64,000 nucleotides of DNA from a bacterium (GTDB lineage: Bacteria; Auribacterota; UBA3054), in assembly GCA_017963805.1 (NCBI GenBank), contig JAGCTE010000015.1, positions 122,350-186,349 on the forward strand. The letters run 5' to 3'. How positions within the stretch are numbered: position 1 is the stretch's first letter; each line of letters opens with the position of its first letter. The position numbers and the translations under genes were made by a program. Positions 35,301 to 39,304 of this stretch are shown in pieces. A model generated the notes under the pieces. The model saw only the letters and a program-made list of their open reading frames with translations, had not been told where the DNA came from and made no database searches.

Positions 35301-37475
35301 TTAAAAAAGCTCGGAGAAAAGGTCGGTCTGGGACGCTTCCTTTTCCTTGTTTTCATTTTCTGTTTTGTCTTCCGCCTTTTCCTTGGCGAGGCGGGCTTTC
35401 CTGGCTTTCAGCTCCTCTTCCTTGTTCGGTTCGTCGAAAAGCGAGAATTGCCGCGGTTCCTCGATTTCCGGCGGCTCGAAGCCGCACATGAGGGCCAGTT
35501 CTTTCCATGAGATGATCTTCGTTCCGAGTTCCAGGGCTTTGTCTATTTTGGAGCTCTTGGCGGAGACATCCTCGGTTATGAGGTAGCTGGTCTGCTTACT
35601 GACCGATTCACTGACGGTGCCGCCGTACTTCAGGATGGTGGCGGCGGCCTCCAGCCTGCTGACGCCGGGAATGGCGCCGGTTATGACGAAGATCTTTCCG
35701 TCAAGAATTTTCGGAACGTCCTCGCTTTCCCTGTATTCCATGGCAACGCCTGCGGAGCGGAGCTTTTCCAGCGCTTCAAGGTTCCTGGCGTTGGAAAAGA
35801 AACTCATGATGCCTTTCGCGTTTATTTCGCCGATGCCTTCCACAGCGGTCAGTTCTTCTAAGGTGGCGGAGGCAAGCTTTTCCATGGTGGGGAAACTTTT
35901 CGCCAGGGTCCTGGCGGTGGCGCTGCCGACTCCCGGTATCCCGATGGCGAAGAGAAGGCGGTCGTAGGGGCGCTGCTTGCTCGAATTCAGGGCGTGATCG
36001 AGGTTGGCCGCGGACTTGTCTCCTATGTTGGAGAAAGCCAGCCAATTCACGCCCTTGATGGCGTAGAGGTCGCCGTAGTCGGAGACGATCTTCTTGTCGA
36101 CAAGCTCGTCTATCACGGCCGGACCAAGCCCCGTGATGTCCATGGCGTTGCGGGAGGCAAAGTGCGCGATCGCACGCTTAAGGACAGCCGGGCAACTGAC
36201 GTTGCTGCAAGTTATGGCGGCCATTTCCGGATCTCTGTAGACAGGGCTTTGGCAGACCGGGCATTTGTCGGGGGCAACGATCTTCTCTTCAGAGCCGTCG
36301 CGCTTGTCTTTCAGAACGCCCACGATGTCGGGGATTATCTCGCCGGCTTTCTCGACCAGAACAGTATCGCCGACTCTTATGTCGAGGCGCTCCACTTCGT
36401 CGAAATTGTGGAGGGTGGCTCTTGACACTTTCGTGCCCGCCAGTCTCACCGGCTCAAGGTTCGCCACAGGCGTGATGGCGCCCGTCCTGCCGACCTGCAT
36501 CGATACGGAGAGCAGTTTGGTGGCGGCCGTTTCCGCCGGGAACTTGTAGGCGATGGCCCAGCGCGGGGATTTGGCGGTGGCGCCAAGCTTTTCCCTGAGG
36601 GCGAAGCTGTTCACTTTTATGACTATCCCGTCGGTGGCGAAGGGGAGCGTGAAGCGCTTGTCCTTCCACTCTTCGCAGAAAGCGACGGCGTCCTCGATAT
36701 CGCGGCAGATCCTGCAAGGGGAGGCCGCGGGAAGGCCGAGTTTTTTGTAGGCCGTCAGAAGTTCCAGATCGTCGAAGGCGGGGAAGCGAGCGGAGGCATA
36801 GGCCACGAAGGTCAGTTTCCTTTCCGCGGTGACGGCGGGATCGTGCTGCTTCAGGCTTCCCGCCGCGGCGTTCCTCGCGTTGGCGAAAAGAGCTTCGCCG
36901 TTAAGTTCCCGCTCTTTATTGAGGCGCTCCAGCTCTTTTAGGGGAAGCAATACTTCGCCCCTCACGTGGAACGTTCCTCTGGGGGCGTTCTCCAAAAAGA
37001 GGGGAATGTTTTTGATGGTCCTTAAGTTGGCGGTGATGTCGTCGCCCTTTTCGCCGTCGCCTCTGGTGGCGCCGAGCGTGAACCTGCCGTCAACGTAAGT
37101 TAGGGAGACGGCGAGCCCGTCGTATTTGAGTTCCGCGGAATAGCTGACGCCTAAGCCAAGCTCTCTTGCCATCCTCTCGTCGAATTCCCGCATGTCGGAG
37201 TAGGAATAAGTGTTGCCTATTGAGAGCATCGGGACGGCGTGCTTTAAGGTTTTGAACTCTCCGGCGAGCTCGTTGCCGACTCTTTGGGTGGGGGAGTCGG
37301 GGGAACTAAATTCAGGGAACTGTTTTTCCAGTTCAATAAGCTCCGCCATCAGGCGGTCGTAATTCTGGTCGGTTATTTCCGGCGCGTTCTCGACGTAATA
37401 GAGCCTGTCGTGGCGCCTTATTTGGGCGCGCAGCGATTCTATCCTGTTCTTTGCGTCAAGTTGTTCGCTCATCAC
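35301..37475 (-). CDS. ligA: NAD-dependent DNA ligase
   Basis: 724 aa. KYDG adenylation motif (ELKYDGLAV), a four-Cys Zn finger (CPVCQS…CSNVSCP), HhH and BRCT regions. There is an extra charged C-terminal tail. Confidence 0.95.
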
Positions 37476-39304
37476 TCGCGCACTTTGATCACTTGCCCGG
37501 CTTTCAGTTCCTGACCGTCGTTCAATTCTTTCAGTTTTTCAGCGCCGATCCCGAATTTCTTGCCGAGGCTGTAGTAGGTGTCGCCGTTCTGAACGGTGTA
37601 GGTCCCGTCTCCCGAAGCTTCGGCATCAGGGGCGTTTTCTTTCGTTTCGGGTTCCGCCGCTTTGGATTCGACGGGCGCTTCAGCGGGCTCCTTTAATTTC
37701 AAGACCATGCCGGGCTTGAGGTTGTTGTCGCTCATGCCGTTCCACTTTTTGATGTCTTCCACTTTGAGCTTGTAGTTCCTCGCGATGGCCCAGAGGGAGT
37801 CGCCCTTTTTCACGGTGTATTCCGCCGGGGCTTCCTCGGTCTTCCTGAGCACGGCTTCGTCAACTTTGGCGGCGAGTTTGTCGACCGCTTCTTTGGCGGC
37901 TTCCTTGGCGGCCTGCTCGACCTGAGCTTTCTGCGCCGCTAATTTTTCCGCTTCCTCTTTGGCGGCTTTTTCAGCGGCGGCCTTTTCGGCGGCCAGTTTT
38001 TCGGCCGCTTCTTTGGCGGCCTTTTCAGCCGCGGCTTTCTCGGCCGCTATTTTCTCCGCGGCTTCCTTGGCTGCTTTTTCCGCTTCCTCTTTCTCCTTCG
38101 TAAGCCCGGAGAGCGCGGCGTCGGCGGTCGTCAAAAGATCGTCGTTCTTTTTCTCTTCTTCCTTGGGAGGATCGGAGACGAGCTTGAGTGAGCCGATGTC
38201 CGAGAAGTCGTCGGTTTTTGGTTTTGTTTCGGCTGGTTTGGCGGAGGCGGCGTTGGTTGGCTGCTCTTTTTCGACCGCTTCGGTCGGCTTGACAGTCTTC
38301 GGAGCGTCCTCTTTCTTTGTTTCAGGCGGCAGAGGCTTGATTATGTTGGAGGGGAAAACTTTTTCCAAAAAGGGGAACCTGTCCCTGAGCTGGTCTTTGA
38401 AGGCGAAGCCAAGCACGAGCAGCACGCAGATGAGGCAGGAGAGATAGAACCAGATGTTGGTGTTTTTCTCTTCCCTTACGACGGGCGGTATGTCGTCCAC
38501 GTGCGTTATGGCGCGCAAAAATTCCTGGTAGTTGGCGTAGCGTTCGGCAAGCGAAAAGGAGAGCGAACGGAAGATGAGGCCTTCCCAGCCTGGCGCGATG
38601 TCGCTGCGCATGTTGGAAAGCGAGGCTATTTCGCCCTGCGGGGGAGCGCCCGTCAGCATAAGGTGGCAGATGGCTCCCATGGCGAAGATGTCGCTCTGCA
38701 CGGTGGGCGTTCCCTGGATCTCCTCCGGGGAGATATAGGCGTCGTCGGGATCGCTGGAAGTCCTGACGGCGGGAAGACCGATGTCGGTAAGGCGGACGAG
38801 CGGCCGGCCGGAATTGGTGCCGCTGCCCTCGACGATCATGATGCCGTGCGGGTTGATGCCGCCGTAGGGAAGATCCGCCGCGGAATGCGCGTAGGTAAGC
38901 GCGTCCGTCAATTGCGTAAGAAGATCGGCGATCACGTCCTCTTCCAAAAAGCCCGGGGACTGGTTGAGATATTCCTCGAGGTTGAGGCAGTCGCGGTCGT
39001 TCCTGCCGCCGACCTGCTTGTAGGCCGCGTATTCCTGGACCGTGTAGAAATAGCCGTCCCTGATCGATCCGCTGGCCAGCTGCGGGACTATCGAGGGATG
39101 GTGTAGGCTTTCCCTTTCCCTCGCTATCGCCTGGGCCGCTTCCGCGTAGCGCCCGGGGCTGTAGATTTTAAGCGCGGCCAGTTCGTGAGTCTTTACGTTC
39201 TCGGCGATGAACACGCCGCCGGCTCTGCCCTGGCCTAAAAGCATAGAAAGTCTGTACTCGCCGCAGATAGTGCCCTGCCACTCTTTTGGATCGAATTTAG
39301 TCAT
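37472..39304 (-). CDS. Membrane Ser/Thr kinase-like protein with an extracytoplasmic AEKAAK-repeat linker and two LysM domains. The catalytic loop looks degenerate, so it may be a pseudokinase
   Basis: 610 aa. Gly-loop GQGRAGGV, the VAIK-like AALK and the SPE (APE) motif are present. No HRD or D-x-K-P-x-N catalytic loop is found ([16 protein letters not shown] in its place), and DFG reads DIG. One TM helix. Two LysM repeats: [16 protein letters not shown] and [16 protein letters not shown]. Confidence 0.75.
37930..38110. repeat. Tandem degenerate repeats encoding the (A/E/K)-rich [25 protein letters not shown] linker of the kinase-like gene
   Basis: Repeated GCGGCCTTTTCGGCGGCCAG-like units on the + strand. 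Confidence 0.5.

Follow-up and report, generated by a model that had tools for sequence, protein, structure and literature searches.

A LysM-bearing pseudokinase encoded beside ligA and its apparently undescribed family in uncultured bacteria

What could a kinase-like membrane protein do once its catalytic loop has degenerated, and what does it mean that its gene runs directly into that of a DNA ligase? This question is raised by a 64,000-nucleotide stretch of a bacterium of the UBA3054 lineage (GenBank assembly GCA_017963805.1, contig JAGCTE010000015.1, positions 122,350 to 186,349; hereafter the window), in which a complete minus-strand gene (37472..39304) overlaps the start of ligA. The open reading frame (ORF) list and Pfam matches to Pkinase and, twice, to LysM define its 610-amino acid product, referred to here as the LysM pseudokinase. 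A preliminary description of the window, made from its sequence, had suggested a peptidoglycan-sensing pseudokinase scaffold. That suggestion is supported by the kinase fold, by a universal replacement of the catalytic Asp by Gly, by a ratio of nonsynonymous to synonymous substitution rates (dN/dS) of ~0.06, and by the combination of a transmembrane (TM) helix with LysM domains, while the function itself is inferred from these features. We consider it probable that the protein is a receptor-like pseudokinase, anchored to peptidoglycan, through which cytoplasmic partners are organised or allosterically controlled. The family of LysM pseudokinases to which it belongs is real and conserved and seems not to have been described before. 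Few experiments have addressed bacterial pseudokinases, and the architecture of this family and its linkage to ligA are intriguing; they do not overturn current understanding, and the hosts are uncultured.

Kinase fold and catalytic motifs

The Hanks-type pseudokinase domain, predicted to be cytoplasmic, covers approximately residues 10-270 (38495..39277, minus strand, as for all features of this gene) and was delimited from Pfam, structure prediction, Foldseek and dN/dS. Pfam Pkinase (PF00069) matches residues 17-235 with 58.6 bits (cut-off 31.7, E = 8e-16), a match that spans only positions 1-209 of the 263 in the profile. AlphaFold2 (AF2) was run on residues 1-285 with an alignment of 13 family sequences, and the resulting model has a predicted local distance difference test score (pLDDT) of 84.9 and a predicted template modelling score (pTM) of 0.85. 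The best Foldseek matches in the PDB are Mycobacterium tuberculosis PknI, PknB and PknA and Staphylococcus aureus Stk1 (E ~1e-16, TM-score 0.7-0.8). The confident model and its matches to PknI, Stk1 and PknB show that the domain has a genuine Hanks fold.

Catalytic columns were assigned by two independent alignments, one made with phmmer to the solved structures of StkP, PknB and Aurora, and the other made with MAFFT alongside 18 other bacterial kinases. Three motifs that the preliminary description had listed as present are indeed retained. The Gly-rich loop reads G24-Q-G26-R-A-G29 (39218..39235, within GQGRAGG at residues 24-30), the β3 (VAIK) lysine is Lys46 of the motif A-A-L-K46 (39167..39169) and is invariant in all family members, and the equivalent of APE is S192-P-E194 (38723..38731), where both E194 and its usual αH-I Arg partner, R255, are invariant. 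The catalytic loop, which lies in the stretch quoted in the preliminary description (residues 142-157, confirmed as written), has degenerated, and L145-P-Y-G-G-I-N-P-H-G154 (38843..38872) replaces xxHRDxKPxN. Here Y147-G148-G149 fills the HRD column, with G149 in place of the catalytic Asp; the loop Lys is replaced by N151, the loop Pro is kept as P152, and the loop Asn is lost to G154. The alignments agree on G149 and G154 and place no Asp or Asn in the loop, as expected from the earlier statement that an HRD/KPxN loop is lacking. The accompanying statement that the catalytic Asp and Asn are missing is correct for this protein but, as regards the Asn, cannot be extended to its relatives, many of which keep that residue. 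Likewise, the DFG motif does read DIG (D174-I-G176, 38777..38785), yet the metal-binding Asp, D174, is kept, and the loss in these motifs is restricted to the HRD Asp and the loop Asn. The αC Glu is lost as well: the column of the Glu in RFxRE is I60 here and I, A, S, N, L or C in relatives.

Among the features expected of a competent kinase, the DFG Asp and the Gly-rich loop are present, and the HRD Asp, the loop Asn and the Lys-Glu pair are absent. A pseudokinase is defined by the absence of at least one of the VAIK Lys, the HRD Asp and the DFG Asp, with that loss being conserved, and as judged from its motifs the protein falls under this definition through the HRD Asp alone. On the same sequence grounds, the LysM pseudokinase is predicted to be unfit for ordinary phosphotransfer.

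Conservation and selection across the family

Approximately 22 relatives (30-97% identity) have this architecture in common, and all of them show Gly-Gly at the HRD columns. Metagenomes and metagenome-assembled genomes (MAGs) supplied thirteen close homologues (46-97% identity), and the named genomes among them include “Bacterium isolate RGIG7086, sheep rumen”, a water-buffalo rumen MAG and “bacterium UBP3_UBA3054”. The whole family is from uncultured bacteria; its close members are from rumen MAGs, one of which is assigned to UBP3, a candidate phylum reported to be fore-stomach-specific in buffalo (PMC8831627). The family also offers a first handle on the envelope biology of a rumen candidate phylum that has no cultured member. 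Residues 1-310, used as the query of an exhaustive HMMER search against 1.84 billion representatives, revealed a second tier of relatives (P0040-P0047 and P0051; 32-40% identity, E = 1e-47 to 1e-25). These proteins also have a kinase-like domain, a TM helix, a long low-complexity spacer and two LysM domains. The search separates the family, which scores at least 148 bits, from the next proteins, which are unrelated kinases scoring at most 114 bits. Profile searches of a 5.8-billion-protein set with family alignments gave almost nothing new, did not recover P0040-P0047 and yielded no taxonomy for the wide family.

Across the wide family, G26, K46, G148, G149, P152, G176, D188, E194 and R255 are invariant, and G24 and R27 of the Gly-rich loop are at least 90% conserved. 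The column of the catalytic-loop Asn varies between N, S, R, H and G; the only universal catalytic change is that of the HRD Asp to Gly. The DFG Asp is replaced in 3 of the 22 relatives, by Gly in P0045 and by Glu in P0047 and P0051, and no activation-loop Ser or Thr is conserved family-wide. Since the Gly-rich loop, the β3 Lys and, in most members, the DFG Asp have outlived the catalytic base, the domain may act as a nucleotide-binding but non-catalytic switch or scaffold, and the motifs suggest that it probably still binds nucleotide.

The same pattern could also be explained by an atypical active enzyme, in which ATP-dependent phosphotransfer, or another nucleotide-dependent reaction such as AMPylation, would proceed through a relocated residue, for example D188 or His/Asn151. 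A Gly-rich loop, a β3 Lys and, for the most part, a DFG Asp are conserved as they would be in an active site that is still in use, and D188 does not vary across the wide family. There are also precedents in reviews, which mention pseudoenzymes whose catalytic residues have migrated and enzymes such as SidJ that use the kinase fold for a different chemistry (PMC12599244; PMC10211241). However, the position of the catalytic base is an invariant Gly-Gly, the αC Glu is absent, the loop Asn is variable, and the DFG Asp has been lost in three relatives, a set of changes too large for a working active site to tolerate. In addition, D188 aligns one residue past the canonical “GT” Thr and not onto it. 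We regard an atypical enzyme as decidedly unlikely, and prefer a domain that binds nucleotide without catalysis.

A decaying kinase was considered and rejected, given a dN/dS of 0.06 and motifs that are invariant over 30-97% identity. Rates were estimated by the Nei-Gojobori method between the gene in the window and that at the related locus L003 (dS ~0.5-1.0). For the kinase domain, dN/dS is ~0.06 at a dS of 0.52, compared to 0.08 for the spacer and 0.11 for the LysM region, and it is 0 for the TM helix, where dN is 0 between close relatives. Among the soluble parts of the protein, constraint is tightest on the kinase-like domain, and this low ratio argues that it is functional rather than decaying.

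Divergence along the gene is mosaic. Compared to L001, the closest relative, the kinase part has a dS of 0.04 and the LysM part one of 0.44. The kinase domain of L003 resembles that of the window (96% amino acid identity), the identities of L003 to the window equal those of L017 for the LysM region (0.84) and LigA (0.88), and the L003 LigA tail is identical to that of L017. The mosaic among these four loci suggests, from their sequences, recombination around the repetitive spacer.

Membrane architecture and known counterparts

The kinase domain is followed by a single TM helix at residues 284-302 (38399..38455), as had been described, which is the sole Kyte-Doolittle window above 1.6 and is modelled by AF2 as a helix at residues 284-301. 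No signal peptide was found at the N-terminus, where MTKF(D/E)P is kept in all close relatives. Beyond the membrane lies a Pro/Lys/Glu-rich segment (residues 306-402, 38099..38389) that is predicted to be disordered from its composition and AF2. A juxtamembrane motif heads this segment, with D304, L306, R307, P311, F317, P318, I322, K323 and P324 invariant in the close clade. The full-length AF2 model is poor overall (pLDDT 47), and only the secondary structure that it gives for spacer and LysM domains was used. In this model, the disordered segment has a pLDDT below 50, with no secondary structure at residues 317-402, and an Ala/Glu/Lys-rich stretch of ~83 amino acids (residues 403-485, 37850..38098, assigned by DSSP) forms one unbroken helix (pLDDT 58-74). 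An ideal α-helix of this size would measure ~12 nm. The helix largely coincides with the low-complexity linker of the preliminary description, at residues 405-490, which is 38% A, 22% E and 21% K and is encoded by a 54-nt tandem repeat in 2.9 copies (37926-38080). The repeat number varies among close relatives, and there are relatives with a Pro/Ala/Thr-rich spacer of 130-150 residues where the helix stands here. We read the modelled helix as a periplasmic spacer.

The C-terminal end carries the two LysM repeats of the preliminary description, and these are confirmed by Pfam LysM (PF01476), which matches twice with 98.1 bits (cut-off 20.9, E = 2.6e-28). LysM domain 1 covers residues 496-537 (37694..37819, profile positions 1-42 of 43), and LysM domain 2, the second Pfam stretch, covers residues 569-608 (37481..37600). 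Both units are β-α-α-β in the AF2 model, with a pLDDT of 70-79 for domain 1 and 75-79 for domain 2. Within domain 2, Y569, V571, G574, D575, T576, Y577 and N595 are invariant in the close clade. LysM domains bind peptidoglycan glycan strands. The window encodes BamA/Omp85, which points to a diderm envelope with an outer membrane, and in two relatives murC-ftsQ-ftsA-ftsZ lies ~3.5 kb upstream of the pseudokinase gene, pointing to peptidoglycan synthesis.

From these features, the LysM pseudokinase would be a bitopic inner-membrane protein with a cytoplasmic kinase fold made up of its first ~280 residues. The lack of a signal peptide, together with a folded N-terminal domain of 280 residues, argues for N-in/C-out insertion like that of PknB. 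The single TM helix would lead into a long periplasmic spacer, first ~85 disordered residues and then the ~12-nm helix, giving the periplasmic part a long reach to the peptidoglycan layer, where the two LysM domains at its end are predicted to bind glycan strands. The pseudokinase domain most likely serves as a non-catalytic docking or allosteric module for cytoplasmic partners, with the LysM domains tying its position or conformation to the cell wall. This would parallel both the attachment of PknB to peptidoglycan through its PASTA domains and the scaffolding of FhaA by the MviN pseudokinase domain. A scaffold role has been proposed for published bacterial pseudokinases, MviN among them (PMC12599244).

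Several points weigh against this model. The charges flanking the TM helix do not by themselves fix the topology. No Pkinase, PP2C or FHA genes were found by Pfam among ~40 ORFs of the 64-kb window, nor within 10 kb in relatives, and no signalling partner was identified over this range. The invariant acidic D188 lies in the P+1 loop and leaves room for residual or altered catalysis. Finally, nucleotide binding is argued from motif retention only, with the αC Glu missing and the DFG Asp gone in the three relatives above.

The lack of signalling partners nearby would also suit a structural tether, in which the inner membrane is fastened to the peptidoglycan layer by the LysM pair and a spacer shaped like a rod, and the kinase domain is an oligomerisation or anchoring knob without a signalling role. 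A long helical spacer with a repeat number that varies between strains fits this idea, as do the equally long Pro/Ala/Thr-rich spacers of relatives. A passive knob, however, would not need the specific conservation of nucleotide-site residues, and constraint is strongest in the cytoplasmic domain (dN/dS 0.06 vs. 0.08-0.11 elsewhere). A tether of this kind is unlikely, and the receptor-like pseudokinase remains our preferred model.

The closest counterparts in sequence and structure are the PASTA kinases PknB, StkP and Stk1, which are the best matches of the pseudokinase domain. They share a cytoplasmic N-terminal Hanks domain, one TM helix and extracytoplasmic peptidoglycan-binding repeats. 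In contrast to the LysM pseudokinase, PASTA kinases are active, with an HRD motif, a loop Asn, an αC Glu and phosphorylatable activation loops, and their repeats are PASTA and not LysM. The NCBIfam model NF033483 (PknB_PASTA_kin) matches only the kinase domain (43.3 bits, cut-off 450), and there is no Pfam PASTA match. A second counterpart is M. tuberculosis MviN (MurJ)/ActPs3, a membrane protein with a dead cytoplasmic Hanks domain and an extracytoplasmic carbohydrate-binding domain that acts as a scaffold in wall homeostasis (PMC12599244). In MviN, the pseudokinase is fused to a 14-TM flippase, has neither the VAIK Lys nor the Asp of HRD or DFG, and binds no ATP, whereas the LysM pseudokinase has one TM helix, keeps the Lys, the Gly-rich loop and the DFG Asp, and carries LysM domains.

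Plants combine the same two modules, as NFR5/NFP/LYR4 and LYK5 have LysM ectodomains joined to a dead kinase that signals as a scaffold (PMC6628658; bioRxiv 10.1101/2024.10.23.619817). The plant receptors have an N-terminal LysM region and a C-terminal kinase, carry three LysM domains as opposed to two here, and belong to the RLK/Pelle clade. The plant LysM models of Pfam score below their cut-offs (LysM3_LYK4_5 23.3 vs. 29.3; LysM2_CERK1 15.2 vs. 27.4; LysM_RLK 12 vs. 27). The likeness is one of convergent architecture and not of whole-protein homology. The LysM pseudokinase could thus provide a compact bacterial system for the relay of glycan binding across a membrane by a dead kinase, converging with NFR5.

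Seven families of bacterial pseudokinases have been classified, namely ActPs1-3, GLW, CP1, DYD and DLHK (bioRxiv 10.1101/2025.01.12.632604; reviewed in PMC12599244). Like the LysM family, they are conserved bacterial Hanks folds with degraded catalytic motifs and presumably non-catalytic roles. The VAIK Lys is substituted in all members of five of these families, in 60% of DYD and in 34% of CP1, while it is present in 100% of LysM pseudokinases, where only the HRD Asp is lost universally and the hosts are uncultured. DLHK and CP1 have no TM segments, and no published family is described with LysM. By the published descriptions of motifs and architecture, the LysM pseudokinases do not fit any of the seven families. 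The classification was drawn from RefSeq and UniProt and missed lineages known only from metagenomes; most hosts of the LysM family have turned up solely in metagenome assemblies, which it would not have covered. The LysM family represents a distinct type, in which the catalytic base and the αC Glu are lost, the residues of the nucleotide site are kept, and the link to the wall is made through LysM rather than PASTA. A full-text search of the literature returned no example of a bacterial pseudokinase, or of a Hanks-type kinase, with LysM.

Hanks domains that lack HRD and keep the β3 Lys are not rare in metagenomic data. Among the next-best proteins, the N-terminal domains of tandem kinases and other HRD-less domains (P0055, P0111, P0160, P0077, P0109 and P0172) have the HRD Asp replaced and the β3 Lys kept. 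They differ from the LysM family in their fusion partner, which is either another kinase domain that is active or an FHA, FGE-sulfatase or Ig-like domain, and none has LysM. Many of the nearest matches outside the family (P0055, P0057, P0062, P0111 and P0160) are bacterial proteins with two kinase domains, and the N-terminal domains that were inspected (P0055, P0111 and P0160) have no HRD Asp, giving tandems of pseudokinase and kinase that resemble JAK.

Linkage to ligA and genomic surroundings

The gene directly downstream of the pseudokinase gene is ligA, which encodes an NAD-dependent DNA ligase (35301..37472, minus strand). It had been described as overlapping the pseudokinase gene by 4 nt, and we find an overlap of 1 nt likelier. 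Two in-frame starts are present in the window: a GTG at 37475, which gives the 4-nt overlap, and an ATG at 37472-37470, which shares one base with the pseudokinase stop (TGATG). The junction in L001 is TAATG with no GTG option, and the 1-nt ATG overlap recurs in L003, L017, L019 and L020, so the ATG at 37472 is the likely start. In L015/L016 the overlap is 11 nt.

The linkage extends well beyond this junction, and ligA is downstream of the pseudokinase gene in 10 of 10 informative loci. It is directly next in each close-clade locus that reaches past the gene (the window, L003, L015/L016, L017/L018, L019 and L020). In the wide family (L021, L025 and L026), the order is a class III aminotransferase gene, the pseudokinase gene, a Cof-type HAD hydrolase gene, ligA and a gene for a ~195-amino acid protein, with the gene 5′ of the pseudokinase gene being different or not captured in L021 and L026. 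L027 has a type ISP restriction enzyme gene inserted before ligA, besides the HAD gene, and L023 and L024 stop within the HAD gene. LigA identity across the family loci falls to 48-52%, the remaining neighbours differ between the two clades, and the core of pseudokinase, (HAD) and ligA persists. The ligA domain set of relatives is complete, with Nlig-Ia, adenylation, OB, Zn, HhH and BRCT domains.

This deeply conserved coupling forms a concrete, testable hypothesis, in which the pseudokinase works with LigA, recruiting it to the membrane or division site or coupling the state of the wall to replication or repair. The two genes are immediately adjacent and overlapping in close loci, and in the wide family ligA follows the HAD gene, with or without an insert; this order has outlasted both the divergence of LigA to 48-52% identity and the change of neighbours. 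On the other hand, no biochemical logic joins a pseudokinase to a ligase, and the operons also carry housekeeping genes (class III aminotransferase, HAD hydrolase and lpdA-like). The loci may share one deep lineage, so that the linkage could be inherited gene order, and L027 tolerates an insertion between the genes. We consider such a partnership very unlikely. A narrower version, in which a wall-anchored, nucleotide-binding dead kinase docks or regulates LigA, with its BRCT domain and clamp-binding-like tail, and so physically couples the status of wall or division to lagging-strand sealing or repair in this uncultured lineage, has the tight gene linkage as its sole argument and seems to us slightly less likely still. 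A wall-anchored pseudokinase acting on other cytoplasmic partners is still the interpretation that we favour.

LigA itself has a tail (35301-35480, minus strand) of ~55 charged residues past the BRCT domain, containing QFSLFD and a terminal DLFSELF. Both resemble β-clamp-binding motifs and are kept among close relatives; LigA of the distant ones likewise ends in (D/E)LF. The third gene on the same strand (33884..35281) is lpdA-like and encodes a dihydrolipoamide-dehydrogenase-like flavoprotein with Pfam Pyr_redox_2 and Pyr_redox_dim; it has the same position in L003 and L017. Its longest-ORF call (33884-35356, 490 amino acids) starts too early, its basic N-terminal extension over the ligA tail being spurious. 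Translation in relatives of 464 amino acids points instead to the Met of MPYTCDVFVMGAGPGG, at ~35281, as the conserved start. A scan of the minus strand found no terminator-like site between the pseudokinase gene, ligA and the lpdA-like gene, and an Rfam scan of the window gave no matches. Approximately 30 nt 5′ of the pseudokinase start codon, a consensus scan picked out a candidate sigma-70-like promoter (TTGGCA-18-TATAAT, 39335..39364, minus strand), which agrees at 11 of 12 positions and is a pattern match only.

Two other associations were considered. An anti-phage kinase (PD-T4-6, PglW or MADS6) was rejected, since the matches cover only the kinase domain, the catalytic Asp is absent and the operon is a conserved housekeeping one. 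The best PADLOC match is PD-T4-6 (84.8 bits, kinase domain only), and NCBIfam gives 43 for PglW (cut-off 990) and 42.5 for MAD6 (cut-off 460). A link to the division cluster is weak, as three opposite-strand genes lie between, and the window carries a Bat operon there instead. This Bat/aerotolerance-type operon (42736-52349, minus strand) encodes a MoxR AAA_3 ATPase, two VWA/BatA-like proteins, TPR proteins, BatD and a TPR-SH3 protein, and in more distant relatives its position is taken by murC-ftsQAZ.

Elsewhere in the window, three genes (4931-10980, minus strand) match JetA2 (DUF2397), JetB2 (DUF2398) and JetC (SMC/MukB-like, 1250 amino acids) of Wadjet-type systems. No JetD-like gene adjoins them, the next gene (4533-4931) being a cytidine deaminase, and the trio may be an MksBEF-like condensin and not a complete Wadjet system. 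Three large, back-to-back ORFs of 615, 857 and 798 amino acids (18507-25323, plus strand) form an island of 32-41% GC in a window of 55-57% GC. They have no Pfam, NCBIfam or PADLOC matches, and the island was probably acquired horizontally. Further along, three paralogues of ~840-860 amino acids (53460-62247, plus strand) each carry BACON_2 near residues 250-330, and their row is broken up by a phosphodiesterase/sulfatase-like gene (58743-59660).

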